A stretch of DNA of 64,000 nt from Candidatus Wolfebacteria bacterium RIFCSPLOWO2_01_FULL_47_17b. Its GTDB lineage: Bacteria; Patescibacteriota; Minisyncoccia; UBA6257; JAGOQP01. This document shows, piece by piece, positions 5,232-61,012 of this stretch (position 1 is the first letter of the stretch; every line of letters begins with the position of its first letter). The notes under the pieces are model-generated. The model was given only the letters and a program-made list of their open reading frames with translations, ran no database searches and had not been told where the DNA came from. The translations under genes and the position numbers were made by a program. Location: assembly GCA_001793865.1 (NCBI GenBank), contig MGIS01000024.1:21525-85524 (forward strand), written 5' to 3'.

Positions 5232-5658
5232 CGAAGCCAAGACAATTTTAGAGGAGATACTTTCCCGAATGGGCTTTTCGGATTTTTCGGTGCAACAAAG
5301 CGAGGACGGAAAGCGATGCGCGGTGTTTGTAAACGATGCTCCGTTTCTTTCTCGGCAGGTGGCTGGGTTTATGCTTGATCTGGATACGGTGCTACGGCTT
5401 ATACTCAAGAAAAAGAATCTGCCATTCGTATTTGTGGACGTGAATAACTACCGCAAGGAGCGTGAGGAGATTATTATAAAGCTTGCGAAGGCCGCTGCTC
5501 GAAAGGCGCTGGCCGAAAAAACCAATGTGCCACTTCCGCCCATGAATGCGTATGAACGCATGATTGTGCATACGGAATTATCGCTGCATCCGGAACTTAA
5601 GACCGAAAGCTTCGGCGAAGGGCCGAACCGACACGTTGTCATTCGTCCATTCCAATAA
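5224..5658 (+). CDS. jag: Jag/KhpB-like RNA-binding protein (KH/R3H)
   Basis: C-terminal R3H-like 'GEGPNRHVVIRP', synteny after yidC. Confidence 0.7.
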   Translation: MHNEAKTILEEILSRMGFSDFSVQQSEDGKRCAVFVNDAPFLSRQVAGFMLDLDTVLRLILKKKNLPFVFVDVNNYRKEREEIIIKLAKAAARKALAEKTNVPLPPMNAYERMIVHTELSLHPELKTESFGEGPNRHVVIRPFQ

Positions 5659-7690
5659 GATGGGGACACTGTAGCTTGTATAGTATTCCCGCTTCATCTT
5701 CATACACCCTCTCTGTTTGTGACAGGAAATTTTTTTGTATAAATGGCAGGTATTCTTGCTTAAATGGTTCATCCCAATACAGATATGTCGCTCCATTGGA
5801 GCAGAGGACGGTGGGATCGCCTGTTTGCAGAAATGAGCGTATGTTCTGGCGGCGCGCTGATCCGGTGTCCGCGCGGCCTTGTGTCCAGAGCCACCCCTCG
5901 AATCCTAAATATATAGGACGTCCTGTAAGCATGGGGATGAAATTGTTTGCTCCCGATGCGGATACGATAACGGCCGTGCTCGGTGTGTTGTTCCGTATAT
6001 ACTCAGCCGCTCCAAACTGCGTTTGTGAATAGTAGCCAAAATGCGATTTGTTTATGCGAGGACTTGTCCCAAGACTAATTCGTGCGAATACGTCCGCGGT
6101 TCCGGACGCGAGCGCTCCGAGTATGAAAATTATCGCAAGTGAAATAGGCGTGATTTTATACGGTGTACGATATACGATATTCGGCATACGGCCAATAAAT
6201 TTTTCTATAAGAAAAACAAAAACAAGCGTCGCGGCGAACCACCAGTAGAACAAAAGTTTGTTGTTATCGAATTCCCATGGCTGGAGCTTTACGAGATTTC
6301 CAACGGCAAAAATAATACTTCCGGCAATCCACGTTGCGAAAAGTGCGCTATGTTTTTTTATTTTTTTTATAAAAAAGAATGAAAGCAGCCATGCCCCAAA
6401 CAATACGCCGAAGTTTTTAAACCAAAACCACAGCGCATTCGCGTCGGTGCCCGAGGTATTGGGGTCGCACGCAAACCAGTTTGTGTTGTGTGCGCATGTC
6501 ATCCAGCCGAACCATAACGTGAGAGGTGAGACAGATGAAAAAATGGAATTTGAGAGGAGAAAATAAAGTTGCGGAGCGGCGATGAGGATGCCTATAAAGA
6601 TGGGGAGGAGTGCTTGTATACCGTATGCCGTATATTGTATATCGCGTACGCGGAACAAAAACACCACTAGCGCGAAAATTCCCATTGCAACGACCGTATG
6701 CAAGTGCGCTAAAGGAATGAATCCGACAAGCATGAACCAAAGCCATACCTTGTCTGTCTTCCAATATGCAAAAACTCCTGCAAGGAACAGGAACGCGAGC
6801 GCGGCGGCCGGCATAAACGATCGCTGGTGAGAAAAGAATGAAATAGCGGGCGTTATCCAGACAATATTCGCATCGTATTCCGCGCCGGACGGCTTTCCTC
6901 CTGTGCGGATATCCATGTGCGTGTATTCGAGTTGAGTGGTGAGTAGTGAGTAGTGAGTGGTGGGTTGTGAAAAATGCACGATGAATAGACCCAGGCCACC
7001 GCCAAACAAAACAATGGCGACAAATGATATTTGTAGAACAGGTTTCTTGACGGTGAGCTTTACGAGGTTCCACAATCCCGCTACGATGCCTGCGCCGTAT
7101 ATAAAGAGGGGCAGATGCCAAGCCAAGGCAAATGAACTCCCAAGCTTTAAAATCAACGCGCTGAGGAAGTTGATAAAAAATGTGTAGGTGAGCGGCGTGC
7201 CGCCGGCGATCGGGTGATTGAGCGCGAATGGATCCGATTCGGCCAACACTCGTATCATGTCCATGTGGTACGCGCCGTCTCCCCAGCCCTTGAGTATGCC
7301 GTAGGGAAATCCGTCCACCCAAATCATAGATTGGTACGCGAGAAGCAGGACAACGGCGGCTATTAATAGGATAGAAATACTTGTCGCTATCATTGCGAGC
7401 GACCAGCGGGAGCGCGGCAATCTCAAATAGTCAAGTGGATTGCTTCGCGTTGCTCGCAATGACAATAAAAACACTATCAGTGAAATTCCCAGAGTCGCCC
7501 ATGCCGCGAGCGTCAAATTTTTTGTGACCAGCGCACATACAAGCACAACAAACCCCTGTAAAGTTGTTCCAAGTACGAGCGAGAAAATCAAGCGCGAGAA
7601 AATACCGAATCGTTTTTCTTTATCCAAAAATGAAAGCGCAACCGCGCCTGATACTACTGAGAAAATACAAAACAACACCCCGTATATCAT
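5639..7690 (-). CDS. large polytopic membrane protein, possibly GT-C-fold glycosyltransferase (PMT/ArnT-like)
   Basis: 683 aa with >12 predicted TM helices; family assignment uncertain. Confidence 0.35.
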   Translation of the reverse strand: MIYGVLFCIFSVVSGAVALSFLDKEKRFGIFSRLIFSLVLGTTLQGFVVLVCALVTKNLTLAAWATLGISLIVFLLSLRATRSNPLDYLRLPRSRWSLAMIATSISILLIAAVVLLLAYQSMIWVDGFPYGILKGWGDGAYHMDMIRVLAESDPFALNHPIAGGTPLTYTFFINFLSALILKLGSSFALAWHLPLFIYGAGIVAGLWNLVKLTVKKPVLQISFVAIVLFGGGLGLFIVHFSQPTTHYSLLTTQLEYTHMDIRTGGKPSGAEYDANIVWITPAISFFSHQRSFMPAAALAFLFLAGVFAYWKTDKVWLWFMLVGFIPLAHLHTVVAMGIFALVVFLFRVRDIQYTAYGIQALLPIFIGILIAAPQLYFLLSNSIFSSVSPLTLWFGWMTCAHNTNWFACDPNTSGTDANALWFWFKNFGVLFGAWLLSFFFIKKIKKHSALFATWIAGSIIFAVGNLVKLQPWEFDNNKLLFYWWFAATLVFVFLIEKFIGRMPNIVYRTPYKITPISLAIIFILGALASGTADVFARISLGTSPRINKSHFGYYSQTQFGAAEYIRNNTPSTAVIVSASGANNFIPMLTGRPIYLGFEGWLWTQGRADTGSARRQNIRSFLQTGDPTVLCSNGATYLYWDEPFKQEYLPFIQKNFLSQTERVYEDEAGILYKLQCPHLIGMDE

Positions 7691-9942: not shown

Positions 9943-9998
9943 GATACGTTTATTTTATCACATATTTGGTCTGTCTTTCTTATTTGTTTGCTATACAC

Positions 9999-10100
9999 AA
10001 TTTCGAATTCTGAATTTCTAATTTCGATTCAATTTTGAATAACTGAAGTTTCGAAATTAATGCATTAGAAATTGATTCGAAATTCGGAATTGGAAATTAT
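9999..10100. repeat. AT-rich GAATTTCGAAT-type palindromic intergenic repeat, copy A (diverged)
   Basis: Shares 'gaatttc/gaaattc' motif architecture with copies at 25.9, 26.6/27.0, 41.6 and 45.1 kb. Confidence 0.6.
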
Positions 10101-10194
10101 AAATTATATGAATTATCCACACATCTTCGATTTGCGCGTAAATAATGTGTTATACTGTTTGAAAGGCCCTAAAAGCAATCACTAATTATTTATT

Positions 10195-11334: not shown

Positions 11335-12370
11335 GTTCTTGTAGCACCAACCCCAGTTCCTTTTGGGTGGTTTTGGTTTGGGAGAATATAATTATATTGC
11401 AACCTGCTTCAAGCGCGCGGAGGGCGCGGTCTTTGAGTGAGAATTGCGAGAATGCATCCATCTCCAAATCGTCGCTTATGGCCATGCCTTTGAATCCGAG
11501 TTCGTTTTGAAGCAAGGATTGTATGATTGTAGGAGAAAGGGCCGCGGGCAAAGAATCAAAGGCGGCGTATACGCTACCGCCGATCATGACCGCGGGGGGA
11601 TTGAAGCGTGAAATTATTTTTTTGAATGGCACAAGGTGCTTTTCGAGCTCTTGTTTGGAAGCAGGTACGGTTGCTATGGAATCGTGTGTGTCTACCGAGT
11701 CGTCGGTGTGGCCCGGAAAGTGTTTGAGCACCGGTATAACGCCGCCGTCTTCGTAACCTCGTAGCATCGCTCCCGCGAGCATCGTTATTATTTCGGGATC
11801 TTTTTGGAATGTTCGGTTATATAAAAAGGAATCTGGGTTCGTAATGTAATCAACAACGGGAGAAAAATTCATATCAATGCCGTACTCACGCAGCTGTTCG
11901 GCCCTCTTCCGCGCTATGAGGTACGCATCGGTTTCCGATGAAATGTCTTTTTGTGCCGTACTCTCCGTGCCGGGAAATGCTATGCGTGATACGTCGCCGC
12001 CTTCCTGGTCTATTGCGATTATAATTTCGGAATTGATCGCATGAATATCAGCGGTTAGTTTTTTCAATTGTGCGAGAGATTGGATGTTTCTGGATAGGAG
12101 TAAAATGCCGCCGATGTGATACGCGCGTATGAAATCGGCCGTTGTTTTGGAAAGCACCGTGTCGGTGACGCCGATCATCACTTGAGAAGGCGCGTGAGGT
12201 TCAACCTTGGTCTGGGAAGGTTGAACCTCGGCGATATTTAGTATGTTTGCCTGCAACGAAACAGAAGCCGTTGGGGTGGCTTTGGAAATGGCCGTGCAAG
12301 CGAACGCAAAAAATACCGAGAGCAGAATAAAGGAAAGTATATAGGGGGCGTGTATGAGCTTGCGGTTCAT
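11297..12370 (-). CDS. nagZ: beta-N-acetylhexosaminidase, glycoside hydrolase family 3 (NagZ-like), secreted
   Basis: GH3 motif 'KHFPGHTDDSVDTHDS', N-terminal signal peptide. Confidence 0.75.
   Translation of the reverse strand: MNRKLIHAPYILSFILLSVFFAFACTAISKATPTASVSLQANILNIAEVQPSQTKVEPHAPSQVMIGVTDTVLSKTTADFIRAYHIGGILLLSRNIQSLAQLKKLTADIHAINSEIIIAIDQEGGDVSRIAFPGTESTAQKDISSETDAYLIARKRAEQLREYGIDMNFSPVVDYITNPDSFLYNRTFQKDPEIITMLAGAMLRGYEDGGVIPVLKHFPGHTDDSVDTHDSIATVPASKQELEKHLVPFKKIISRFNPPAVMIGGSVYAAFDSLPAALSPTIIQSLLQNELGFKGMAISDDLEMDAFSQFSLKDRALRALEAGCNIIIFSQTKTTQKELGLVLQELTRSELWQPAGR
12198..12227. repeat. small palindromic element GGTTCAACC-TTGGTCTGGGAA-GGTTGAACC inserted in-frame in nagZ
   Basis: 9-bp perfect stem, 12-nt loop; same element in three other genes. 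Confidence 0.6.
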
Positions 12371-14320: not shown

Positions 14321-14342
14321 TTCTGTAACCTTTCAAATCCCC

Positions 14343-15106
14343 ACGAGGCTCAGCCTCGTAGAGAAAGTATGAGAAAGTTAGCTTTTGTAAATGGTGGTAT
14401 ATATCACATCTATAACCGCGGAGTTGAAAAACTCCCCGTTTTTCATGATAGTCATGATTGTTTCAGGTTTTTGTATGGCCTTTATGAATTTAATGACAAA
14501 AATCCTGCCGAAAATATTTACTTTAAAGAACCTTCTTTAAAGTCCTACGAGGCTGAGCCTCGTAGGGAGCTTATCCTTAAGGATCGCGAACAAGTTGTCC
14601 ATATATACGCGTATTGCCTTATAGATAATCACTTCCATCTTATGGCCAGGCAAATAGAAGAAGGGGGAATTGTAAAATTTATGCATAAATTAGGGACGGG
14701 GTATACTGGGTTTTCCAATAAAAAATATGAAAGGTCAGGGCATCTTTTTCAAGGAAGATTTAAAGCGGTTTCCATAGAGAAGGAATCTCAATTATTGTAT
14801 CTTCCATATTATATCCATGCGAATACACTTGATATGTATATGCCCGGATGGAGAGAGGATGGTGTTGCTAACCTCAATAAGGCAATGCAAATTCTTGAAA
14901 ACTATGAGTATAGCAGTTATTCGGAGTATGCATGCGAACAAGGGAATTATCGGAATCCTATTTTAGAAAAAGATTTTTTATCAGGAGTTTTAGGATCCCC
15001 AGAACAATATAAAAAAGATATGATGAAGTGGCTTAAGGAAAAAAATAGATTCGAAAAATTAGGCGGAGTAACGATAGAGTCATAGTTCTACGAGGCTGAG
15101 CCTCGT
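14343..15106. mobile_element. IS200-like unit / RAYT with REP-like palindromes ACGAGGCT(C/G)AGCCTCGT at 14343-14359, 14545-14565 (internal) and 15090-15106
   Basis: Three copies of the same perfect 17-nt palindrome bracketing and within the HuH gene. Confidence 0.55.
14369..15085 (+). CDS. IS200/IS605-like (RAYT-like) HuH Y1 transposase family protein
   Basis: HuH motif 'DNHFHLM', family resemblance to COG1943; flanked by REP-like palindromes. Confidence 0.6.
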   Translation: MRKLAFVNGGIYHIYNRGVEKLPVFHDSHDCFRFLYGLYEFNDKNPAENIYFKEPSLKSYEAEPRRELILKDREQVVHIYAYCLIDNHFHLMARQIEEGGIVKFMHKLGTGYTGFSNKKYERSGHLFQGRFKAVSIEKESQLLYLPYYIHANTLDMYMPGWREDGVANLNKAMQILENYEYSSYSEYACEQGNYRNPILEKDFLSGVLGSPEQYKKDMMKWLKEKNRFEKLGGVTIES

Positions 15107-15129
15107 GGAAACTATACACTCATCCTCTT

Positions 15130-16929: not shown

Positions 16930-17719
16930 CAAACGACTCGGTCAGCATTTTTTACAGAATGGAGCTAAGCTACAAAAGATTGCAGACGCTCTTGAGATAC
17001 AAAAAGGGGATGTGATAATCGAGATTGGCCCCGGTAGAGGCGAACTTACTGAAAAACTTCTTGCCGCGGGCGCACGTGTGATTGCTATTGAAAAGGATGT
17101 ATTGTTGTGGTCAAGGCCGGGTCTCGACCACCTCGAGATGGTGTACGGCGATGTGCGAGAAAAGCTTTCGGTTGTTGTGAAATCTTTAGAAAAGAAACCC
17201 TACTTTCTTGCAGGAAATATCCCTTACTATCTGACGGGGTATTTGTTGCGAATGATAGGAGATATTGAGCACAAGCCGGTGCGGACAGTTTTTACGATTC
17301 AAAAGGAAGTTGCTGAGCGAATATGTAAAACCGAGGAGGTTGGCATGAATATATTAGCGGCTTCCATTTTGTGGTGGGCTGACGCGGCATACATTACCAC
17401 AATTCCGCGAAAAATGTTCAATCCTCCGCCGAAGATTGATTCCGCCGTAATCTTACTGAAAACAAAGCCAGCTTTCATAAAGGGTGGAACGAGGCAGCTC
17501 CGTGACCACGCTGATTATATGAAATTCGTGAAAGTTTTATTCGCGCATCCACGCAAAACAGCGCTATCGAATCTCCTCGCATTGTATAAAAAGAAGGCCG
17601 TGTTGGTCACCTTTACTGCATTGGATATTAGTGCGAATATTCGTCCCGAAAGACTCTCATTTGAGAAAATTTTAGAATTATATAAAACATTGCCCTCACT
17701 TAAGGACGATCGTCCTTAA
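16922..17719 (+). CDS. rsmA: 16S rRNA (adenine1518/1519-N6)-dimethyltransferase
   Basis: 'LGQHFLQN' and SAM-binding 'IEIGPGRGELT' KsgA motifs. Confidence 0.85.
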   Translation: MTNKRLGQHFLQNGAKLQKIADALEIQKGDVIIEIGPGRGELTEKLLAAGARVIAIEKDVLLWSRPGLDHLEMVYGDVREKLSVVVKSLEKKPYFLAGNIPYYLTGYLLRMIGDIEHKPVRTVFTIQKEVAERICKTEEVGMNILAASILWWADAAYITTIPRKMFNPPPKIDSAVILLKTKPAFIKGGTRQLRDHADYMKFVKVLFAHPRKTALSNLLALYKKKAVLVTFTALDISANIRPERLSFEKILELYKTLPSLKDDRP

Positions 17720-17725
17720 GTGAGG
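17694..17725. repeat. perfect 32-nt palindrome CCTCACTTAAGGACGATCGTCCTTAAGTGAGG overlapping rsmA 3' end
   Basis: Exact palindrome between convergent genes; related copies at 18383-18424 and 19650-19691. Confidence 0.7.
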
Positions 17726-17727
17726 AA

Positions 17728-18300
17728 CTAAATTCCAAAGTGATATTTAAGTTTATCTTCTCCTTCAAAATGATCCACATACGCAATAAGTATGTGATCT
17801 CGAATTGCGTAAAACGACGCGATGAAATCTATTTCGTCTTCGCACGAGTACGGAATAATAGCCACGCTCCTTTGGAGGAAATAAAAACCCATTCGATAAA
17901 GATGCCTTCGTAGAGCATTCCGCGCGGTTTTGTATTTTTCAGGAACGTCGAATGAAACAATTCGCCATTTTTTGTCCCATCGTCCCGCCGTCTTCAGCTC
18001 TATGTGTTCAATATCAAATTGCAAAACTTTTTCTTTTCCGGTTTTCAGTATTTTTATCTCTATGTTGCCATCCGCGAGTTCTTTGTAATCAACCATCTCT
18101 CGTTTCTGGAGGACGCGCAGATCCCGCATGAATTTATCTTTTTCAAAACACCTTTTTCGATAATAGATTTTTGCCAGTTCCGAGAGGATACGCGCGCCGC
18201 CAGCTGGATTGGTAAGTGAGACAACGGCAATTCCCGTGCCGATTGCAAGGTATTTCAATATAAGATGCGAGCGAGAGTTTCTATATATATTTTTTGCCAT
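17728..18300 (-). CDS. hypothetical protein with PaaX-C-like 'RWDKKWRIVSFDVPE' motif, possible regulator
   Basis: Weak motif resemblance only. Confidence 0.3.
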   Translation of the reverse strand: MAKNIYRNSRSHLILKYLAIGTGIAVVSLTNPAGGARILSELAKIYYRKRCFEKDKFMRDLRVLQKREMVDYKELADGNIEIKILKTGKEKVLQFDIEHIELKTAGRWDKKWRIVSFDVPEKYKTARNALRRHLYRMGFYFLQRSVAIIPYSCEDEIDFIASFYAIRDHILIAYVDHFEGEDKLKYHFGI

Positions 18301-18382: not shown

Positions 18383-18424
18383 CTGCCCCCACTTAAGAAC
18401 GATCGTTCATAAGTGAGGGCAGGG
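18383..18424. repeat. imperfect palindrome with ACGATCGT core (family copy 2)
   Basis: 'CTGCCCCCACTTAAGAACGATCGTTCATAAGTGAGGGCAGGG'. Confidence 0.6.
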
Positions 18425-18461
18425 AGAGTGGCGGGAAGAGAATTTAAAAGAGTCAGGGCGG

Positions 18462-19601: not shown

Positions 19602-19649
19602 GTTGCTTTAAGTATAAGTCGTGTCTGCGAAAGTTCAAGCTATACGTGT

Positions 19650-19691
19650 CCCTGCCTTCACTTATGAACGATCGTCCATAAGCGAGGGCAG
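19650..19691. repeat. imperfect palindrome with ACGATCGT core (family copy 3, inverted relative to copy 2)
   Basis: 'CCCTGCCTTCACTTATGAACGATCGTCCATAAGCGAGGGCAGG'. Confidence 0.6.
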
Positions 19692-19779
19692 GTAGAGGGG
19701 GCGGTTGGTGAGGGGGATTTTATGCACATTTTTCGTTTGTATAAAGACCTCCACTAGTAGTATACTTATATTGTATGAA

Positions 19780-24885: not shown

Positions 24886-25923
24886 ATGATTCAGATTTCT
24901 CAACAACAACTTGAACGACGATGGGATGAGGCGCCAGACGAGATTCGGGACGGCATATTTTCGGATGAAAATAATGATGAGTTGGACAGGATAGGAGTCA
25001 CATATACTTTGAATCGTCAGCAGGAAAAAGATCTGGCATATCTGTGCCTGGTTACGTTCTTGGGATTCATCACCACGAAAGATGTATACAACCAGTTGCT
25101 GGAATTTTTCGGAGGAAATGCAAAGAGTGCGTACGATGTGTATGTGCTGTTGGATGTGAAGCTGTTCGGGCCGGTAAAGGGGCAAATAGAGGCGTTTCGG
25201 AAGACGCACTGGATTCCGGATGAGCAGGCCGATGTTCAACTTTCCCAGACCAAGGTTGAACCTCCACGCATGGAACAGAGGGTGGATTTGAAGAAGAGAC
25301 CGGAGAAAGATGCGGTCAATTTAAAAACAGAAGAGATTAAAAAGGTGGAGTCGGAGCCTGGACCGGTGGTGGTGTCACAAGTTAGAAGTGAGAAGCTAGA
25401 AGTGAGAAGTGAACAAAAAGAGCAAGTCCCCGCTGCTGTTCTTCCAACCTCCAACTTCCAACCCCTAACTTCTCAACCGAAATTGTTTTCGCCACACGAT
25501 TTTCACTTGAGAGGTGAGAAGTGGGCTGTGAGTAGTGAGAAAACTCAGTCTTCACAATCCGTAACTCAAAACCCACAACCCACTACTCAAAACCTAGACG
25601 AAGGGCCCATCATTCTTCACAAAAAGGAGGAATCTATTCCGATTGCGGAAGCGAATAGGTATAAAGAATATAAAAATATATCGGCGGGAGGATTTTTGGG
25701 GTCGTTTGGAAGCATATTCAACAGGAAGCGGGAACAGCAGAATCAGGCGCCGAGGGCGAGCGTGGAGATACCGGAGGCGTATACCGAAAACCGTATACCG
25801 TATACCGAATCAGGGAAGGTAGGGGAGAAAGTTCCGGTGAAGGTGAAGAATTTCGGAGATGAGCGAAGCAATGTGCAGTACAGTGATTATAGGACATATC
25901 TAAAACAAAGAGACCAGAGTTAA
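24886..25923 (+). CDS. hypothetical protein with internal short tandem repeats
   Basis: Repeats 'agaagtgagaag' x2, 'cgtataccg' x3, plus in-frame palindromic element 25234-25261. Confidence 0.4.
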   Translation: MIQISQQQLERRWDEAPDEIRDGIFSDENNDELDRIGVTYTLNRQQEKDLAYLCLVTFLGFITTKDVYNQLLEFFGGNAKSAYDVYVLLDVKLFGPVKGQIEAFRKTHWIPDEQADVQLSQTKVEPPRMEQRVDLKKRPEKDAVNLKTEEIKKVESEPGPVVVSQVRSEKLEVRSEQKEQVPAAVLPTSNFQPLTSQPKLFSPHDFHLRGEKWAVSSEKTQSSQSVTQNPQPTTQNLDEGPIILHKKEESIPIAEANRYKEYKNISAGGFLGSFGSIFNRKREQQNQAPRASVEIPEAYTENRIPYTESGKVGEKVPVKVKNFGDERSNVQYSDYRTYLKQRDQS

Positions 25924-26030
25924 TTTTTAATTATGATTTTCGAATTTCGAATCAATTTTAAATGACTGAATTTCTAAAATCAATACATTCGAGTTTGACT
26001 CGAAATTCAAAATTAGAAATTCGGGATTAT
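25924..26030. repeat. AT-rich GAATTTCGAAT-type palindromic intergenic repeat, copy B (solo)
   Basis: ~90% identical to copies D and E. Confidence 0.7.
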
Positions 26031-26039
26031 ACCTAAAAC

Positions 26040-26558
26040 ATGCAATTTTCAGTACCACAATTCATTGATGTTGAAAGCAAGATTGTCGGGCCGCTGACCA
26101 TCAAGCAATTTGTGCTGGTGGCGGTGCCGGCATTGTTGACATTTGTGCTCTTTTTCGTACTGCACATTGCCTTCTGGATTCCGATCGCGGCAATCTTGGT
26201 TGGCGTTGGTGTATCGTTTGCTTTCATAAAAGTAGACTCCCGTCCTTTGTATATGATTGCGCTCTATGCCCTCAAATTCTTTTGGCAGCCGAAACTGTAT
26301 TTATGGAAGCCGGCGGTTATAACCGAGAAAGTTATTATTCCCGAGATACAAAAGAAACGATTCGAGCTTAAGACACTTATACCCGATTTTTCGAAGGTCA
26401 ATAAGCTATGGCAGGACATGACCACGACTAAAAACCCCATTCCGAAGCGCGAAAAAATACTTCCCAAAGCGATGCTGCAAGAAGTGCAAGAACAGTACCA
26501 GGTGTTTAGAAAATTGAGCGGCGAACGGGAGATAGCGAAGAGAGTGGACTTTAGATGA
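26040..26558 (+). CDS. PrgI/TcpE/VirB3-like small conjugation membrane protein
   Basis: Two adjacent TM helices after 'IVGPLTIKQFVLVAV' segment, precedes VirB4. Confidence 0.45.
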   Translation: MQFSVPQFIDVESKIVGPLTIKQFVLVAVPALLTFVLFFVLHIAFWIPIAAILVGVGVSFAFIKVDSRPLYMIALYALKFFWQPKLYLWKPAVITEKVIIPEIQKKRFELKTLIPDFSKVNKLWQDMTTTKNPIPKREKILPKAMLQEVQEQYQVFRKLSGEREIAKRVDFR

Positions 26559-27016
26559 AAATTTTGAATTTCGAGTTCTGAATTTCGAATCAATTTTAAA
26601 TTATTGAATTATGAAGAACAGGCTGTCAGATACAACATATAACCTTGAAGAGCGAACCGCCGCATTTGGTGAAAAGATTATTAAACTCTGCAGAAGCATC
26701 CCGCAAGATGTTATCACGAAACCAATCATTAATCAGCTCATCCGTTCCGGGACGAGTATAGGTGCAAATTATATGGAAGCGAATGCCGCTAGCTCAAGGA
26801 AAGATTTCAAGAACAAGATTTTTATCTGTAAGAAAGAATCTCAAGAAACGCAGCATTGGCTTAGGATGATGGCACAATGCGTGCCGGGAAAGAAGGAGGA
26901 AATTAGAAATTTATGGAAGGAAGTGCATGAGTTGATATTAATATTTGGAAAAATTGTTTCAACATTAAGAAATTAGAATTTGAATCGAAATTCAAAATCA
27001 AGAATTCGAAATTCCC
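26557..27016. mobile_element. loaded copy of AT-rich palindromic repeat carrying a four-helix-bundle gene between its arms
   Basis: Left arm 26560-26610 and right arm 26977-27016 match left and right halves of solo copies B/D/E. Confidence 0.6.
26611..26976 (+). CDS. four-helix-bundle protein (23S rRNA IVS-protein / Avd-like family)
   Basis: 'QLIRSGTSIGANYMEANAASSRKDFKNKIFICKKESQETQHWL' matches TIGR02436-type consensus. Confidence 0.7.
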   Translation: MKNRLSDTTYNLEERTAAFGEKIIKLCRSIPQDVITKPIINQLIRSGTSIGANYMEANAASSRKDFKNKIFICKKESQETQHWLRMMAQCVPGKKEEIRNLWKEVHELILIFGKIVSTLRN

Positions 27017-27075
27017 AAGGAGTATCAAAACATAATTGCTTTATTAAACATAGTTTTTGCACTATACTACTATAC

Positions 27076-27738
27076 ATGGCAGAGGTGACATACGCTCCGA
27101 ACTCCACTCAGCAGTTTGTGGATGTGGAGCGGATCAAAAACGGAATTGTGGAGCTACGGAGCGGATCCATTCGGTCCGTTATTATGGTTGGCGGCGTAAA
27201 CTTCGAGCTGAAATCTGAAGAAGAACAAAACAGCATAATCGCCGCGTATCAGAATTTTTTGAACGCGCTCGATTTTTCTCTGCAGATACTGGTTCATTCG
27301 CGCAAGCTGAACATCGATCGATACCTGGATAAGATGCAAGGGATTCACGAAAAAGAGCAAAACGATCTTCTGCGCAATCAGATAGCCGAATATATCGAAT
27401 TTGTACGGGGGTTTGTGAAAGAAAATGAGATTATGGCAAAAAACTTTTTTGTCGTAGTGCCGTATGACGGAGGCGGCGTCGCGGAGCTCAAAAAAGGCAT
27501 TTCGAGCGTGCTACCGTTTTTCGGTAAGAAGAAGAATGCTGCAAAGGGAAAACAGGAGACCTATGAGCAGAAAGTGGTGCAGCTTAAGCAGCGCGTGGAT
27601 GAGGTGGTAAGCGGGCTTGAGCGGATCGGTCTGCGGGCAATCCCGTTGCAGGACGATGAGCTCACGGAGCTATATTACAATTTATACAATCCGGAAACAG
27701 TCGAAAAAGAACTGAAAAAACATGGAGCAGAAGATTAG
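27076..27738 (+). CDS. VirB4/TraC-like conjugation ATPase, N-terminal portion (split gene)
   Basis: N-terminal VirB4 region 'ELRSGSIRSVIMVGGVNFELKSEEEQNSIIAAYQNFLNALDF'; ends at A6 tract 27731-27736. Confidence 0.6.
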   Translation: MAEVTYAPNSTQQFVDVERIKNGIVELRSGSIRSVIMVGGVNFELKSEEEQNSIIAAYQNFLNALDFSLQILVHSRKLNIDRYLDKMQGIHEKEQNDLLRNQIAEYIEFVRGFVKENEIMAKNFFVVVPYDGGGVAELKKGISSVLPFFGKKKNAAKGKQETYEQKVVQLKQRVDEVVSGLERIGLRAIPLQDDELTELYYNLYNPETVEKELKKHGAED

Positions 27739-29476
27739 GATTTCACAAAAGAATATTTCGGAGGACAGTGAAGTGAAAAATCTTATCGCTCCGGCGGCAA
27801 TCCAGTCCAATCAGTCGCACTTGAAGGTGGGAAATAAATTTGCGAAGACGTTTTTTGTTTTTTCGTACCCACGGTATCTTTCGAGCGGATGGTTTTCGCC
27901 GATTATCAATCTCGCGAAGTTGTTTGATATATCCATTTTTGTGCACCCGGTGGATACCGCGTTGGCGCTTCGCAATTTGCGCAAAAAAGCGGCGCAGGTT
28001 GAAGCCGAGATTCTGGACAGGCAGGAAAAGGGATATGTGCGGGACCCCATGCTTGAAACCGCGTTCGGCGACATCGAGGGCTTGCGGGATAATCTTCAAC
28101 AGGCGCAGGAGCGGTTGTTCGATACGGCGGTGTACGTAACCATCTATGCCGAGACGCTTGAAAAATTGCAGGAATTGGAGGATACACTGGTGAACTTATT
28201 TGAGAGCAAGCTCATATACATCAAACCGGCAATTTTCCAGCAGGTGGAGGGCCTCGTGTCTACGTTGCCGCTCGCGCAAGACAAGCTTGCGATTCATACG
28301 CCTCTGAATTCCGGCCCGGTATCGTCGTTTTTTCCGTTCACGTCCATGGATCTTACGTCGGAGAACGGGATAATGTATGGCATAAATTTGCACAATAATT
28401 CGCTTGTGCTCTTCGATCGATTTTCTTTGGAAAACGCGAACCAGGTTGTGTTCGCCAAGTCGGGAAGCGGAAAATCGTACGCAACGAAGCTGGAAATTTT
28501 GCGTACGCTTATGATGGGGACCGAGGTAATCGTGGTGGATCCGGAAAAAGAGTACAAGAATTTGTGTGATACCGTTGGAGGCACGTATTTCAATGTATCG
28601 CTTACGTCGGATCAGCACATAAATCCTTTCGACATACCATTCGTACCGGAAGGAGAAGATCCGGCAGATGTATTTCGTTCACACATACTGACGATGGCGG
28701 GGCTTTTGAAGATTATGTTGGGAGATATTGCCGTGGAAGAAGAAGCTCTTCTGGACCGGGCTATAAGTGAAACATACTCGTCGTTCGACATTACACCGGA
28801 TAATCCTAACTTTTTAAAACTGGATGCGCCTCTTCTGTCCGATTTTGAGACCGTTTTGCGAAATATGGAGGGCGGAAAAGATATGGCGGAACGATTGTAT
28901 AAATATACACAAGGAAGCTACGCGGGGTTCGTGAATCAAAAGACAAATATAGATGTGCAGAACCGGCTGGTTGCGTTTTCAATACGAGATTTGGAGGACG
29001 AGCTGCGGCCGATTGCCATGTATGTCATCCTTAACTTTATTTGGAACTTGGTGCGGTCGCAGATGAAACGGCGCATACTTGTGATAGATGAAGCATGGGT
29101 GATGATGAAATACCCCGAAGGGGCAGCCTTTTTGTTCGGGATGGCGAAGCGCGGGCGTAAATATTACCTAGGCCTTACCACTATCACGCAGGAAGTTGAC
29201 GACTTTCTGAATTCGCCGTATGGGAAGCCTATTATCACCAACTCGTCGTTACAGCTTCTTTTGAAGCAAGCACCAGCGACCATAGATACGGTTGCAAAGA
29301 CGTTCAACCTGACCGAAGCGGAGAAGAATCTTTTGCTTGAGGCGGGCGTGGGACAGGGAGTGTTTTTCGCGGGATTGAAGCATGTTGCCATGCAGGTGGT
29401 GGCCTCGTACTTTGAGGATAAAATTATTACGACCAAGCCGCAACAATTATTATCGGAAGAGGAGCCACTCGTATAA
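27722..29476 (+). CDS. VirB4/TraC-like conjugation ATPase, C-terminal ATPase portion
   Basis: Walker A 'AKSGSGKSYATK', Walker B 'RRILVIDEAWVMM'; overlaps upstream ORF in +1 frame. Confidence 0.8.
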   Translation: MEQKIRISQKNISEDSEVKNLIAPAAIQSNQSHLKVGNKFAKTFFVFSYPRYLSSGWFSPIINLAKLFDISIFVHPVDTALALRNLRKKAAQVEAEILDRQEKGYVRDPMLETAFGDIEGLRDNLQQAQERLFDTAVYVTIYAETLEKLQELEDTLVNLFESKLIYIKPAIFQQVEGLVSTLPLAQDKLAIHTPLNSGPVSSFFPFTSMDLTSENGIMYGINLHNNSLVLFDRFSLENANQVVFAKSGSGKSYATKLEILRTLMMGTEVIVVDPEKEYKNLCDTVGGTYFNVSLTSDQHINPFDIPFVPEGEDPADVFRSHILTMAGLLKIMLGDIAVEEEALLDRAISETYSSFDITPDNPNFLKLDAPLLSDFETVLRNMEGGKDMAERLYKYTQGSYAGFVNQKTNIDVQNRLVAFSIRDLEDELRPIAMYVILNFIWNLVRSQMKRRILVIDEAWVMMKYPEGAAFLFGMAKRGRKYYLGLTTITQEVDDFLNSPYGKPIITNSSLQLLLKQAPATIDTVAKTFNLTEAEKNLLLEAGVGQGVFFAGLKHVAMQVVASYFEDKIITTKPQQLLSEEEPLV

Positions 29477-41599: not shown

Positions 41600-41720
41600 T
41601 AATATATTTAATTTTTAATTTTGACTTTCGAATTTCGAATCAATTTTTAATGATTGAATTTTCAAAATTAATACATTCGAGCTTGATTCGAAATTCAAAA
41701 TTAGAAATTCGAAATTATTA
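41600..41720. repeat. AT-rich GAATTTCGAAT-type palindromic intergenic repeat, copy D
   Basis: Near-identical to copy E including upstream 'tatatttaatttttaattttga'. Confidence 0.7.
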
Positions 41721-42344: not shown

Positions 42345-43564
42345 TGTTATTTGTGTATTCACTGTACCATTTGCTATGGAGCGTTGTGGGGGCATTTTTA
42401 TACCGGCATCCTTCCAGGAAATTGTGCGTGATTGGCGTTACCGGCACCAAGGGAAAATCAACAACGCTTGCGCTCTTATCGCATATTTTTTCATACGCAG
42501 GCAAAAAGACGGCGCTCGTGTCTTCTTCGTACGTGCAGATCGGCGCGCGCACCGAACGGAATGAGTCCGGCAATTCCATGCCCGGCAGGTTTTTTTTGCA
42601 GAGGTTTTTGCACCGCGCGCACAAAGAGGGATGTGAGTATGTATTTTTGGAGGTAACGTCGCAGGGGGTGTTGCAGCACCGGCATCGCTTCATTCATTGG
42701 GACAGTGCGGTGTTTTTGGATATCCATCCCGAGCACATTGAAGCGCACGGGTCGTTTCGGAATTATCTGCGCGCGAAAGTATCCTTTTTCACCTATGTAG
42801 CGAAATTTACTTTAAAAAAGCCAACTTTTTTTGCTTACGCGCATGATCCCCACACGCATGCATTCGAGTACGCGGCTCGGCCGTATCCGGTCACGCTTTT
42901 TTCAGAGTCGGTTATACGCGAGAAAAAGATTGAGATTCCCGAAACACTTCCCGGAGACTTTAATCGGATTAACGTTGCGGCGGCGTATGCGATTGCCCGC
43001 ACGCATGGTATTTCGGGTGCCGAGGTTCGCGAAGCGATCGCTTCATTCCCCGGCTTGCTTGGGCGTATGACAATTGTTTCGAAACGTCCTGTGTATGCAG
43101 TTGTGGATTACGCGCATACTCCCGATTCCCTGCAGGCAGTGTATGAATTTTTAAACTCAAAACTCAAAACTCAAAACTCAAAACTCATATGTGTTCTGGG
43201 GGCTGCGGGTGGAGGACGAGACAAATGGAAGCGGCCGATTATGGGCGGCGTCGCGGGACGTTATTGCTCTACTATTATTCTGACAAATGAAGATCCCTAT
43301 AATGAAGATCCGAAAAAAATTATGTATGATGTGGAAAGGGGAATACGGGAGAGCAATTTCATCGGTGAGCTGCACATCATAGAAGATCGAATGATGGCGA
43401 TTATGAAAGCAATATCGCTTGCCACAGACGGGGATACACTCGTGTGTACCGGTAAAGGGGCCGAAGGCTCCATACATATCGCGGGAGGAAAAAAAATTCC
43501 TTGGTCGGAGAGCGAGTTTGTGTTTACGGAATTACAACGACAGGGAAAATATTACAAAACGTGA
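42341..43564 (+). CDS. murE: Mur ligase family protein (MurE-like UDP-N-acetylmuramoyl-tripeptide ligase)
   Basis: P-loop 'GVTGTKGKSTT', Mur ligase middle and C domains. Confidence 0.6.
   Translation: MMLFVYSLYHLLWSVVGAFLYRHPSRKLCVIGVTGTKGKSTTLALLSHIFSYAGKKTALVSSSYVQIGARTERNESGNSMPGRFFLQRFLHRAHKEGCEYVFLEVTSQGVLQHRHRFIHWDSAVFLDIHPEHIEAHGSFRNYLRAKVSFFTYVAKFTLKKPTFFAYAHDPHTHAFEYAARPYPVTLFSESVIREKKIEIPETLPGDFNRINVAAAYAIARTHGISGAEVREAIASFPGLLGRMTIVSKRPVYAVVDYAHTPDSLQAVYEFLNSKLKTQNSKLICVLGAAGGGRDKWKRPIMGGVAGRYCSTIILTNEDPYNEDPKKIMYDVERGIRESNFIGELHIIEDRMMAIMKAISLATDGDTLVCTGKGAEGSIHIAGGKKIPWSESEFVFTELQRQGKYYKT
43153..43187. repeat. heptanucleotide tandem repeat (AAACTCA)x5 inside Mur ligase CDS
   Basis: Five perfect copies, encodes 'LNSKLKTQNSKL' insertion. 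Confidence 0.9.
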
Positions 43565-45015: not shown

Positions 45016-45049
45016 TGTGCAGTGTGATATAGTTATGTATTATAGGAAT

Positions 45050-45165
45050 ATATTTAATTTTTAATTTTGATTTTCGAATTTCGATTCAATTTTAAATGAC
45101 TGAATTTCTAAAACTAATACATTCGAATTTGACTCGAAATTCAAAATTAGAAATTGGAAATTTTT
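45050..45165. repeat. AT-rich GAATTTCGAAT-type palindromic intergenic repeat, copy E
   Basis: Sequence near-identical to copies B and D. Confidence 0.7.
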
Positions 45166-45171
45166 AAACCC

Positions 45172-46996: not shown

Positions 46997-48487
46997 ATGA
47001 ATATAATGCGAATGTTACGAAATCGGAGCCCAAAGCTCGTAAGGTTTGGCCTTGGTTTGCGAAGGCCGAACCTTGGTTTTACGAGCTTTGGATGTAAGAA
47101 TTCTTTCACCCTGATTGAGCTCCTCATCGTCATAGGCATCCTCGCCATCCTCACCGCCGCAGTCGTCATCCTCCTCAACCCAGCAGAAATGCTCAAAAAA
47201 GGACGGGATGGTACCCGTATGCAGGACATTGCTTCGCTTGATACAACCATATCACTTCTTGAAACACAGGTATCCAATCTTGATCTGGGCATCGCCCAAA
47301 CCCTCTATATATCCATTCCCGATCCATCCCTATCAGGATCATCTACATCCACCTGTTCCTCACTTGGACTTCCAACACTTCCGAGCGGTTATACCTACCA
47401 CTGCGTATCCCAAGACAATCTCCGAAACGTAGATGGTACTGGCTGGCTCCCCGTGGACTTTACCCAATCGGGCATCACCTCTCTTCCCGCGCTTCCCATC
47501 GATCCTACCAACAGCACCTCTACAGGTCTTTTCTATCGCTACATACCCGGAGGCAGTTATCACTTGGAAGCACTACTTGAATCAAACAGCTATCTAGCTA
47601 CCGCTCAAAGTGATGGTGGCTCTTCTCCCTCTGCATTTGAAAAAGGATCCAACCTTACTCTTATGCCTCCCACCTTTCCTACCGGCTATGTGAAAGTACC
47701 AGGCAACTCAACCTTCGGTACCTCTGATTTCTATGTCATGCAGTATGAGGCGAAGTGTTTTGATGAAAACAACCAACCTCTTCCCTATACCACCGGAGAT
47801 GGAGGTGAGGGAGCAACGTACAACATATATCGAGACCTTTCATTCCCCTGCACATCCGCAAACAACAAGTATGTAGGATCCGCACCCACCGGAGCTCCTA
47901 TTACCCGCGTATCCCAAACAAACGCAATTGCCCGATGTGAAGCATCGGGTGCACATCTCATCACCAATAATGAATGGCAGACCATCGCGTGGAACATACA
48001 AAATAACGCAGTCAACTGGAGCGGCGGATCGGTGGGATCTGGTACCGTACCTCGTGGAAATTCAAACACGTCCGCGGCCATGAGTGACGCCTCTACATTG
48101 AGCGGAGTCAATTATCGAAAGCACATACTTTCAAACGGAAATGAGGTGTGGGATATGGCAGGAAATGTCTGGGATTGGACAAGCGATACCATTGTGGGAA
48201 CTAACAAACCCGCAGGCACGGCAGGTTCGTGGGTTGAATTTACCGCCGTATCAAATTACGGGACACTCTCCCGCTCACAGTTTGGTCCCGTTGACAGCTC
48301 GTGGAGTGCTACGCAAGGTCTTGGTCGCTACTATATGGGAACCGCCGATGGAACAACTTACGCCTTTCTACGCGGCGGCGATTGGGGTGATAGCACGAAC
48401 GCGGGGGTTGAGACGCTGTACCTGACCTACACGCCGGGCTATACGGAGAAGCTACATCGGGTTCCGTTGCGCGAGGTAGTCGTGTAG
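46997..48487 (+). CDS. DGR target protein: type IV pilin-like N-terminus plus C-terminal C-type-lectin/FGE-fold variable region
   Basis: Prepilin-type helix 'FTLIELLIVIGILAILTAAVVILL'; C-terminal VR (48360-48480) matches TR with A-specific differences. Confidence 0.8.
   Translation: MNIMRMLRNRSPKLVRFGLGLRRPNLGFTSFGCKNSFTLIELLIVIGILAILTAAVVILLNPAEMLKKGRDGTRMQDIASLDTTISLLETQVSNLDLGIAQTLYISIPDPSLSGSSTSTCSSLGLPTLPSGYTYHCVSQDNLRNVDGTGWLPVDFTQSGITSLPALPIDPTNSTSTGLFYRYIPGGSYHLEALLESNSYLATAQSDGGSSPSAFEKGSNLTLMPPTFPTGYVKVPGNSTFGTSDFYVMQYEAKCFDENNQPLPYTTGDGGEGATYNIYRDLSFPCTSANNKYVGSAPTGAPITRVSQTNAIARCEASGAHLITNNEWQTIAWNIQNNAVNWSGGSVGSGTVPRGNSNTSAAMSDASTLSGVNYRKHILSNGNEVWDMAGNVWDWTSDTIVGTNKPAGTAGSWVEFTAVSNYGTLSRSQFGPVDSSWSATQGLGRYYMGTADGTTYAFLRGGDWGDSTNAGVETLYLTYTPGYTEKLHRVPLREVVV
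48360..48480 (+). repeat. DGR variable repeat (VR)
   Basis: ~120 nt aligned to TR 48942-49060; about 10 of about 13 mismatches at TR adenines. Confidence 0.8.
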
Positions 48488-48496
48488 CAACCCCGC

Positions 48497-48526
48497 ACCA
48501 GAGCGAAGCTCGGTGCGGGGCGCAGT
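48497..48526. other. GC-rich hairpin CCCCGCACC-N-GGTGCGGGG immediately 3' of VR
   Basis: 9-10-bp perfect stem; position analogous to DGR homing hairpin. Confidence 0.5.
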
Positions 48527-48556
48527 CTGAAATCTCTCCTCTCGATCAAACAACAT

Positions 48557-48928
48557 ATGTTGCAAAATCTTGTCATCTACCAAAAGACGTATGATCTGCT
48601 GCTCTGGCTGTATCCGGTTGTAAATAAATTTCCCAAAAGCCAGCGGTTCGTGCTCGGACAGCATATTGAAAACAAAGCGCTTGATCTGCTGCAGCTTTTG
48701 ATCCGCGCGCAAGCGGCAATGGACAAGAAAACATATTTGCGGGGCATAAGCATTGCATTGGACGAACTGCGCACACTCGTGCGTTTGGCAAAAGATCTCA
48801 AGTTTATGCAATTGAAACAATATGAACAGGCGGCGGATAGGCTGAATGAGATTGCGAAACTACTCTGCGGACTTATGAAAAGGTTTATTCCGGAGTATAC
48901 TGAGAGCGCTTATCAAAAGCAGGGGTAA
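48557..48928 (+). CDS. avd: DGR accessory variability determinant (Avd), four-helix-bundle protein
   Basis: 123 aa helical, Avd/four-helix-bundle pattern, between target and TR/RT. Confidence 0.75.
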   Translation: MLQNLVIYQKTYDLLLWLYPVVNKFPKSQRFVLGQHIENKALDLLQLLIRAQAAMDKKTYLRGISIALDELRTLVRLAKDLKFMQLKQYEQAADRLNEIAKLLCGLMKRFIPEYTESAYQKQG

Positions 48929-48941
48929 GACTGCACAATGG

Positions 48942-49060
48942 ACGCCTTTCAACGCGGCGGCGATTGGAATAATAGCACGAACGCGGGGGTTGAGACGCTG
49001 AACCTGAACAACACGCCGGGCAATACGAACAACAACATCGGGTTCCGTTGCGCGAGGTAC
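48942..49060 (+). repeat. DGR template repeat (TR)
   Basis: Adenine-rich relative to VR (AAC/AAT codons). Confidence 0.8.
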
Positions 49061-49211
49061 TCATTACTTTTTGGCCCGAATGAAGCGTGTACGCACACTT
49101 CATCTGAGCCGGACGACTACTGCCTTATTCCTTCTCCAAAAGAGTAAATACACATCCCATTCTCCGCGCTGTTGCATATGCTCCGGCGCGGAGGTGGAGG
49201 GATGTTTTATT

Positions 49212-53966: not shown

Positions 53967-53984
53967 GAGAGAATTATAAATTTT

Positions 53985-54060
53985 AAATTATAAATCAGTT
54001 TTTAATTACTAAATTATAAAATTCAGACCTTGATTTTAAATTTATAATTTATAATTGGAA
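53985..54060. repeat. AT-rich hairpin (ATAAATTTTAAATTATAAATCA / TGATTTTAAATTTATAATTTAT), distinct from GAATTTC family
   Basis: ~22-nt inverted arms between convergently ordered minus-strand genes. Confidence 0.5.
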
Positions 54061-54061
54061 A

Positions 54062-61004: not shown

Positions 61005-61012
61005 AACGCCGG

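Follow-up and report, generated by a model that had tools for sequence, protein, structure and literature searches.

A four-helix-bundle gene framed by inverted heptamer arrays in an operon spacer of a Wolfebacteria genome: a candidate IVS-type cassette outside rRNA

The locus and its genes

The window analysed here is a stretch of 64,000 nucleotides from contig MGIS01000024.1 of Candidatus Wolfebacteria bacterium RIFCSPLOWO2_01_FULL_47_17b, which belongs to the candidate phyla radiation. It contains an operon resembling those of type IV secretion systems (T4SS), in which the spacer that follows a PrgI-like gene holds a gene for a four-helix-bundle (4HB) protein, of the family also encoded within intervening sequences (IVSs) of 23S rRNA, together with two inverted arrays of a seven-base repeat that enclose it. 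Gene and arrays are here called the cassette and the arrays its arms; copies of the repeat that carry the gene are termed loaded, and the gene-less palindromes found elsewhere in the window are termed solo. The features of the loaded cassette and of its host operon are the following.

26040-26558, + strand: PrgI-like small membrane protein gene of the T4SS-like operon, the upstream host (PF12666, 27.7 bits, cut-off 27)
26560-26615, + strand: left arm of the loaded cassette, a tandem heptamer array
26611-26976, + strand: 4HB gene of the IVS-protein family TIGR02436 / PF05635, assigned by profile, structure-database match and predicted fold
26957-27016, + strand: right arm of the loaded cassette, an inverse heptamer array
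27017-27075, + strand: likely original spacer between the PrgI-like and TraC-like genes, similar to the empty spacers of relatives, with TATACT before the ATG
27076-27738, + strand: TraC-like N-terminal part of a split VirB4, 220 aa, the downstream host (PF26593 on an identical protein)
27722-29476, + strand: VirB4 ATPase part, 584 aa (P-loop_TraG / AAA_10)

The open reading frame (ORF) at 26611-26976, 366 nt long, encodes a protein of 121 aa that matches the hidden Markov models (HMMs) TIGR02436 (78.1 bits, E 5e-22, cut-off 24) and PF05635 (59.9 bits, E 3e-16, cut-off 33.8). A sequence search of the Protein Data Bank (PDB) returned 2RLD (E 9e-17). The AlphaFold2 model (predicted local distance difference test score 91.6) has helices at residues 13-28, 36-58, 63-90 and 92-119, and Foldseek aligns it with 2RLD (E 2.5e-5, template modelling (TM) score 0.78-0.86), with 2GSC (TM about 0.8), the pentameric Xcc0516, a crystallised member of the 4HB family, and also with the Avd protein 4DWL (Avd structures, TM 0.7-0.8). 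An earlier note on this DNA, made from the letters alone, had read the ORF as a four-helix-bundle protein and had named the search against TIGR02436 as a check; profiles, 2RLD match and predicted fold all bear this out. Its label Avd-like is right for the fold, as the match to 4DWL indicates, but does not reach further, the diversity-generating retroelement (DGR) of the window having its own, dissimilar bAvd. The gene is under purifying selection (pN 0.21 vs pS 0.87) and, pN being lower than pS, the protein is functional. It is the sole ORF of the cassette, and its Pfam and NCBIfam matches include no transposase; a PHROGs search gave no match, PADLOC gave a weak match to Dsr1 (E 0.005, 12.7 bits) that is regarded as uninformative, and a scan of viral contigs with the family alignment, the method to which this result is limited, found no relatives on them.

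The left arm begins 2 nt past the stop codon of the PrgI-like gene, whose orthologues in relatives terminate at the same position, and the 59 nt beyond the right arm correspond to the whole spacer of relatives, with TATACT about 7 nt before the ATG of the TraC-like gene; from this comparison of sequences, the original spacer was likely kept intact downstream of the insertion. The cassette had been placed between the prgI-like and virB4 genes: the upstream neighbour is confirmed as PrgI-like, but the downstream one is the TraC-like N-terminal piece of VirB4 and not the ATPase ORF. Between the PrgI stop codon and the TraC-like start, no promoter-like or terminator-like sites were recognised on the + strand, the scan as a whole gave no more matches than shuffles did, and the Rfam search found no rRNA either in the window or in 13 related loci.

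Some observations on these genes stand apart from the cassette. The TraC-like and ATPase ORFs overlap by 17 nt and the same split is found in relatives; in the GenBank assembly copy L001 the ATPase ORF is 83 nt shorter than in the window and in other assemblies. TATACT/TATAAT boxes lie about 7 nt before several start codons, both in the window (e.g. 27058-27075) and in relatives, while a Shine-Dalgarno-like 4-mer precedes merely 2 of the 44 long ORFs of the window, which suggests leaderless or very short-leader mRNAs. With this 2/44 frequency, the missing Shine-Dalgarno sequence before the 26611 ORF was rejected as a distinctive trait.

The arms as inverted heptamer arrays

The left arm is made of about six tandem heptamers (AATTTTG AATTTCG AGTTCTG AATTTCG AATC AATTTTA...) and the right arm of reverse-complement heptamers (..TCGAAAT TCAAAAT CAAGAAT TCGAAATT). 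Tandem Repeats Finder (TRF) detects period 7 at 26560-26590 in the left arm and at 26985-27014 in the right one, as well as in every other copy of the repeat in the window; the autocorrelation at lag 7 is 0.57 for the left arm and 0.49-0.59 across all the window copies. The arms, which are about 80% A+T, are inverted heptamer arrays and more than plain AT-rich palindromes, a property that the earlier note had missed, together with its generality for the 4HB family. The two arms are 342 nt apart. The ORF, which had been described as lying between them, is indeed flanked on both sides, but its ATG falls within the left arm and its last ~20 nt are overlapped by the right arm.

Complementarity between left and right arm is 71%. 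When 26545-27030 is folded, a check that the earlier note had proposed, the minimum-free-energy structure has the arms paired with each other across the ORF, and the isolated arm-arm duplex reaches -32.2 kcal/mol (z -10.3 vs shuffles); the folding signal resides in the arms and not in the ORF. Low-complexity intergenic DNA rich in A+T can look alike by chance, and both the composition of the arms, whose repetitiveness inflates raw scores, and a direct (non-inverted) control, which scores above zero, recommend caution on this point. However, chance likeness is refuted by composition-preserving shuffles (z 9-11); when up to 3 mismatches are allowed, the 22-nt core GAATTTCGAATCAATTTTAAAT is found 6 times where 0 occurrences are expected (100 shuffles), and the lag-7 signal is missing from other spacers of these genomes.

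Solo palindromes in the window

Five gene-less palindromes accompany the loaded cassette.

9990-10109, strand ambiguous: solo copy A, diverged, in a divergent intergenic region (78% identical to copy D)
25913-26032, + strand: solo copy B (86% identical to copy D)
41601-41720, + strand: solo copy D, upstream of a ruvA-like gene, reference of the 120-nt family (repeat finding)
45047-45166, + strand: solo copy E, between beta-CASP RNase-like and SLOG/LOG-like genes (90% identical to copy D)
53965-54063, strand not assigned: solo palindrome F, strongly diverged (63-66% identity to the arms of the loaded copy)

Copies B, D and E share 86-100% mutual identity over 120 nt. Compared with the solo copies, the left arm of the loaded cassette shows 73-84% identity to their left halves and its right-arm stretch 26957-27013 shows 74-82% identity to their right halves, so that the split halves seen around the ORF in the earlier note do align formally with the gene-less copies. 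The empty copies that it had listed at 25924, 41600 and 45050, and the diverged one at 9999, were all found within a few bases; its inventory is correct for these but lacked a sixth, weaker copy at 53965-54063. This palindrome F has a different heptamer (AATTATA / TTTATAA, with TRF period 7 at 53972-53995 and 54035-54056) and may belong to a sister family.

Each solo copy is a potential hairpin. In copy D the internal arms, 41609-41662 and 41664-41717, are 76% complementary and 1 nt apart; the predicted folding energies are -28.7 kcal/mol (z -4.1) for A, -24.4 (z -2.7) for B, -28.8 (z -3.6) for D and -25.9 (z -4.0) for E, while palindrome F forms a weaker hairpin (-16.6 kcal/mol, z -2.2). Copy B occupies the spacer between the ORF at 24886-25923 and the PrgI-like gene, in the orientation of the loaded copy (orientation scores 55 for + and 40 for -); copy A gives 48 and 52 and is ambiguous. 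In the alignment, both edges of the ORF have left a trace in the solo copies, in which homology to the region of the ATG and to the final ~20 nt of the gene is preserved, and these relics fit an origin by internal deletion: the five hairpins would be derivatives of a loaded cassette that lost its gene.

The same design in other CPR loci

The 26611 protein has more than 3,200 close homologues and its relatives fall into 8,506 cluster representatives at 50% identity; 80 genomic loci from many lineages of the candidate phyla radiation (CPR) were compared. In nearly all of them heptamer arrays reach the ATG of the 4HB gene and resume right after its stop codon. Significant flanking inverted repeats abut ATG and stop in 61 of 67 CPR loci (median z 9), and the best autocorrelation is at lag 7 in 115 of 136 arms. 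Strong periodicity at lag 7 characterises 82% of the spacers adjacent to 4HB genes vs 23% of the other spacers of the same loci (p 4e-26); the latter include ORF-less palindromes and 4HB genes of further subfamilies. Across 68 cassettes the arm duplex has a median energy of -23.8 kcal/mol vs -10.4 for shuffles, with z below -3 in 74% of the cases, and the termini are sharply conserved, AATTTT(C/G)AATTT...AAATT(G/C)AAAATT.

The position of the cassettes is also characteristic. Of 62 loci, 55 have neighbours that both run in the direction of the 4HB gene, and in a single one both run the other way; in 51% of the cases the start of the cassette falls between -12 and +6 nt relative to the stop codon of the gene before it, and at L111 the upstream stop codon overlaps the ATG of the 4HB gene. 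No transposase adjoins any cassette examined. Copies with nonsense or frameshift mutations were found at L031, L045, L076, L107 and L057, and solo copies lie beside loaded ones at L083, L040, L025, L071 and L077; either observation agrees with decay. A single genome, L027, holds several cassette families, whose heptamers differ.

Two peculiarities of the database entries deserve mention. A cassette with a protein 71% identical to that of the window lies on the 2.6-kb contig L034, which was binned as an archaeon of the Undinarchaeales (DPANN), and several of the metagenome-assembled genomes with cassettes (L013, L025, L040, L045, L068 and others) are labelled Gammaproteobacteria, Bdellovibrionales or Ignavibacteriaceae; mis-binning, mislabelling or real transfer may account for these odd labels. 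Moreover, many relatives are recorded as proteins of 150-220 aa with a C-terminal 4HB domain (e.g. P0128, P0140, P0194), which may be gene calls starting in or upstream of a stop-free arm, or else proteins fused to the end of the gene before them.

Gain, loss and exchange of cassettes

The spacer orthologous to the one occupied in the window was surveyed in 80 relatives of the TraC-like gene, a survey that had been proposed together with the original observation, and empty, ORF-less and loaded states were all found. In most relatives the spacer is empty (31-67 nt) and ends with TATACT/TATAAT before the ATG; in L096 it holds an ORF-less AT-rich palindrome (819-989), and in at least 8 lineages it holds unrelated 4HB cassettes, with proteins 34-63% identical to that of the window and with the heptamers AAATCCT, GAAGCAC, TTTTTAA and GTAATTA. 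The L096 palindrome contains two nested GC-rich hairpins, CCCCGACGCTTTGGTCGGGG and CCCGATCGGAGCATCGGG. A further heptamer, ACGAATT, is carried by another 4HB subfamily. In other lineages it is different spacers of this operon that are occupied, and distant CPR lineages carry proteins 70-80% identical to the 4HB protein of the window.

The clearest case of exchange is found between L110 and L111/L112, whose flanks match with 100% identity along 2.9 kb on one side and with 99.9% identity along 1.7 kb on the other, while the site itself holds unrelated 4HB cassettes of 464 and 461 nt; the swapped segment extends from 6-12 codons before the upstream stop codon to the PrgI ATG. Arms and protein diverge together: in 88 cassettes protein identity and heptamer distance are correlated with a Spearman coefficient of -0.66, and none of 500 Mantel permutations was as extreme. 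Very probably, then, arms and 4HB gene constitute one heritable unit, set in sense orientation in the spacers of co-transcribed genes, which is gained, lost and exchanged and which leaves solo palindromes by deletion.

Part of this evidence could also be read in terms of a host regulatory network, in which the palindromes are cis-regulatory or RNA-processing sites, comparable to repetitive extragenic palindromic (REP) sequences and bacterial interspersed mosaic elements or to the intercistronic RNase III sites of phage T7, and the 4HB protein is a trans-acting, autoregulated factor, its mobility being incidental. The solo copies lie in co-directional spacers with their orientation fixed and with 2-40 nt between their end and the start codon that follows, the 4HB protein is under strong purifying selection, and co-variation of arms and protein is what specific recognition would produce; in Beggiatoaceae, heptamer arrays near start codons have been proposed as translational regulators (PMC4679880). 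This domesticated regulon is a serious alternative, which is however weakened by the patchy, exchangeable and multi-family distribution and is considered unlikely. Cassettes are present or absent at orthologous sites, where unrelated ones replace each other; several families, whose heptamers differ, share the genome L027; near-identical proteins are found in distant lineages and distant ones in close relatives; pseudogenised copies are frequent; and the genes neighbouring the cassettes have no function in common.

Cassettes outside the CPR

A sample from outside the CPR, consisting of 13 4HB genes on plasmids of other phyla, shows the same arrangement. About 10 of the 13 (cyanobacteria, Bacteroidota, Chloroflexota and Treponema) have heptamer arrays on both sides, usually inverted. 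The arms are AATTCGT x5 / ACGAATT x4 in Nostoc flagelliforme, AATTCGC x4 / GCGAATT x4 in N. punctiforme (plasmid pNPUN02), AATCCCC/AATCGTA in Planktothrix and CCGCTCT in Treponema; Dolichospermum, Chlorohelix and Bernardetia provide further examples. Here too the sites are within operons, between genes for an RND (resistance-nodulation-division) adaptor and permease, a helicase and a methylase, cas2 and cas1, or csx2 and cas1. The annotated neighbours of the recurring cassettes include no gene recognised as a reverse transcriptase.

This recurrence bears on another explanation, according to which the repeat is a family of MITEs (miniature transposable elements with inverted repeats) moved by an unlinked transposase, with the 4HB gene as a captured passenger that has no role. 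Such families, too, have inverted terminal repeats whose tips are conserved, multiple short copies without an ORF, and intergenic sites. However, capture of a passenger does not account for an association of gene and arms that recurs in the 61 of 67 CPR loci, in other 4HB subfamilies, whose arms are entirely different, and in five or more additional lineages of bacteria, nor for arms that co-diverge with the protein; target-site duplications and transposases beside the examined cassettes are lacking, and the MITE explanation is regarded as improbable.

Interpretation

The explanation favoured here, with moderate confidence when its mechanistic steps are included, is that the feature is a selfish cassette of IVS type, about 460 bp long, residing outside rRNA. 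Devoid of a promoter of its own, the cassette would be expressed via read-through from the host operon, and in the transcript its arms would pair as an imperfect stem of ~45 bp, folding the insert out of the operon mRNA. RNase III cleavage is proven for rRNA IVSs, and by analogy the arm stem would be a plausible substrate of this enzyme. Relatives of the 4HB protein form pentameric rings, and the ring of the DGR holds RNA; on the model of the pentameric 2GSC and of Avd, an oligomeric 4HB protein might recognise the heptamers of its own cassette and, in trans, those of the solo copies, and this binding might control expression of the cassette or promote its propagation. The two steps that rest on analogy, processing by RNase III and binding of the heptamers by the protein, are the doubtful part of the proposal.

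Several points weigh against this interpretation and are collected here. The cassette contains no recognisable nuclease, recombinase or transposase, and we know of no catalytic activity in the 4HB family. No target-site duplication was detected in 55 cassettes (longest common substring 4.16 for cognate vs 3.93 for non-cognate flanks), mobility is deduced from distribution alone, and the swap between L110 and L111 could represent replacement of an allele by homologous recombination in the flanks and not transposition. As for the RNA stem, the folding energy of the entire 486-nt region is not significantly below that of shuffles (z -1.6), and the sense-strand mismatches of 58 arm pairs do not carry the signature of a conserved RNA helix (G:U 86 vs A:C 94, p 0.6), transversion mismatches between the arms being frequent (327); complementarity of the arms could thus be a property of the DNA, or the outcome of two arrays of one motif. 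In the lack of a G:U excess, the RNA-stem step therefore stays inferred. The orientation of the solo palindromes is judged on only three clear copies. Finally, the S23p protein of the Coxiella 23S IVS has been reported as probably unexpressed (PMC4990558).

A wider proposal, put forward tentatively and held somewhat short of even probability, is that the 4HB "IVS proteins" are the missing partner of the heptamer repeats of bacterial intergenic regions, i.e. of the cyanobacterial short tandemly repeated repetitive (STRR) sequences, of the GGGAATC and TAACTGA repeats and of the CPR hairpins. All of these would belong to widespread cassettes without transposase, with one heptamer for each protein subfamily; ORF-less arrays would be acted on in trans, and rRNA IVSs would be copies that landed in rRNA. 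Tandem heptamers are over-represented in bacterial spacers and have been known since 1990, when STRR sequences were described, without an explanation; to our knowledge, no function has been assigned to the ORFs inside 23S IVSs since 1993, and the pentameric 2GSC and 2RLD are still annotated as unknown. If the proposal is true, the IVS-ORF puzzle and the heptamer-repeat puzzle merge into one testable problem, for which the loci described here provide a natural series of empty site, gene-less hairpin and loaded cassette. For annotation of CPR genomes there is a practical side as well: through these cassettes assemblies break, operons are split and called genes acquire spurious N-terminal extensions. 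Apart from the Coxiella description, a limited search of the literature, by which novelty is not proven, found nothing linking heptamer repeats to PF05635, and a literature search for TIGR02436 gave no match.

The DGR and other repeats of the window

The window also contains a complete DGR, spanning 46997-50210.

46997-48487: target gene, with an FGE-sulfatase-like C-terminus and an N-terminal pilin-type methylation motif
48353-48450: variable repeat
48557-48928: bAvd (PF22296, 87.8 bits; PHROG "Avd protein of DGR")
48935-49032: template repeat, 87% identical to the variable repeat
49071-50210: reverse transcriptase

Differences between template and variable repeat fall, by eye, mostly at A positions of the template. 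The presence of this system, and the superfamily and fold that the 26611 protein has in common with Avd, might suggest that the ORF of the cassette is a displaced Avd of the DGR. This is effectively refuted: the DGR has its own bAvd between variable and template repeats, no BLASTP similarity exists between bAvd and the 26611 protein, the cassette lies 20 kb away, and its design recurs at loci whose annotated neighbours showed no reverse transcriptase.

Additional period-7 arrays are present at 6157-6191, 6616-6644 and 6933-6970 inside the minus-strand ORF 5639-7690, at 25379-25412, 25441-25478 and 25778-25807 inside the ORF 24886-25923, and at 43153-43187. They belong to the heptamer families TATACGA, TGAGTAG, AAGTGAG and CGTATAC, and one is a perfect AAACTCA x5; several lie within long ORFs and are read through in frame as low-complexity peptide. 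The segments 6168-6191 and 6621-6644, 429 nt apart inside the ORF of a membrane protein, form a 92% complementary inverted pair.

Other small palindromes differ in sequence from the heptamer family. A second dispersed family consists of GC-richer palindromes of ~35 nt, GGTTCAACCTTGG...CCAAGGTTGAACC, with up to 95% complementarity between copies, at 12194-12232, 25228-25264, 47041-47079, 49687-49725 and 63095-63129; one copy is in the ORF 24886-25923 and two are in the DGR region, where one lies at the beginning of the target gene and the other within that of the reverse transcriptase. Three more families are represented by CTGCCCTCACTTAAGGACGATCGTCCTTAAGTGAGGGCAG, CTACGAGGCTGAGCCTCGTAG and CAAGATTTAATCTTG pairs, with sites at 17690-17738, 18383-18431 and 19649-19700; at 14332-14364, 14536-14568 and 15079-15111; and at 60228-60280 and 60960-61007. 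A comparable case was met among the related loci, where two Moranbacteria contigs, ~98.5-99% identical, differ by a ~222-nt GC-rich hairpin insertion in one of them (L038 7198-7449 vs L044 7420-7449), a different small mobile palindromic element.

Comparison with known systems

DGR Avd proteins (4DWL; ribonucleoprotein 8UBE/8UB7) share the four-helix-bundle fold of the 26611 protein, and their pentameric ring, which holds RNA together with the reverse transcriptase, is a precedent for nucleic-acid binding by this fold. Conversely, the cassette has no adjacent reverse transcriptase, template repeat or variable repeat, and its protein belongs to PF05635 and not to PF22296.

MITEs and their parent insertion sequences resemble the cassettes in the possession of terminal inverted repeats and in the relation between a coding copy and internally deleted, non-coding ones; they differ in that 4HB cassettes have neither transposase nor target-site duplication and are strongly biased to the sense orientation within operons.

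A closer likeness is offered by the REPtrons, i.e. by the REP doublets forming hairpins (REPINs) together with their REP-associated tyrosine transposases (RAYTs), where a small protein gene is bracketed by an inverted repeat that is also dispersed as gene-less palindromes, an arrangement seen in the window as well; in both systems target-site duplications are absent and repeat and protein co-diverge. However, the protein of the window is a four-helix bundle without an HUH/Y1 nuclease motif and not an IS200/IS605-like RAYT, its arms are tandem heptamer arrays, whereas a REPtron has a single REP hairpin, and 4HB cassettes are exchanged between lineages, while RAYTs are usually vertically inherited.

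Bacterial heptamer repeats, such as the cyanobacterial STRR sequences (CCCCAAT and others), the GGGAATC repeats of Xanthomonas and the TAACTGA repeats of Beggiatoaceae and Bacteroidetes, share with the arms the seven-base tandem unit, the location in spacers and, often, the arrangement in convergent inverted pairs. In Xanthomonas campestris the groES/groEL spacer holds an inverted pair of GGGAATC arrays (PMC4692102), and 6 nt past bccP there is another GGGAATC array, which overlaps the beginning of XCC0516 (PMC4692102 supplement). The papers on these repeats, which read them in terms of G-quadruplexes or of translation, mention no associated protein (PMC4692102, PMC4679880), and it is through the 13 plasmid loci and one published table that they are linked to 4HB genes.

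The ORF-containing 23S IVSs, known from Leptospira, Coxiella burnetii, Brucella and Xanthomonas, and the insertions with 23S_rRNA_IVP in the rRNA of CPR bacteria, carry the same protein family in their loop. Like the cassette of the window, they have stem-forming inverted repeats that enclose the ORF, they occur in forms with and without it, and they are distributed sporadically, in a pattern that looks like horizontal transfer; the family has long been suspected to be mobile, with the ORF aiding mobility (Ralph and McClelland 1993, as cited in PMC4990558). In Coxiella, three or four GACAGAT heptamers stand just before the S23p start codon, and RNase III cuts at the first of these repeats (PMC4990558). 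The cassette of the window likewise has its heptamers directly upstream of the start codon, and the parallel with solo and loaded rRNA IVSs, which the earlier note had drawn, holds and is strengthened by this detail. The differences concern location and diversity: the cassette lies outside rRNA, where IVSs occupy helix 9, 25 or 45 of 23S or, in CPR bacteria, sites in 16S and 23S, and is set in an mRNA spacer of a T4SS-like operon, its ORF-less copies are dispersed in protein-coding regions, and arms and gene form many cognate families. Thus, the element is best classed with the IVS-type four-helix-bundle elements, as a variant outside rRNA, and adds to them heptamer arms as a defining, co-evolving part, the colonisation of operon spacers in sense orientation, the gene-less palindromes left behind and exchange between strains.

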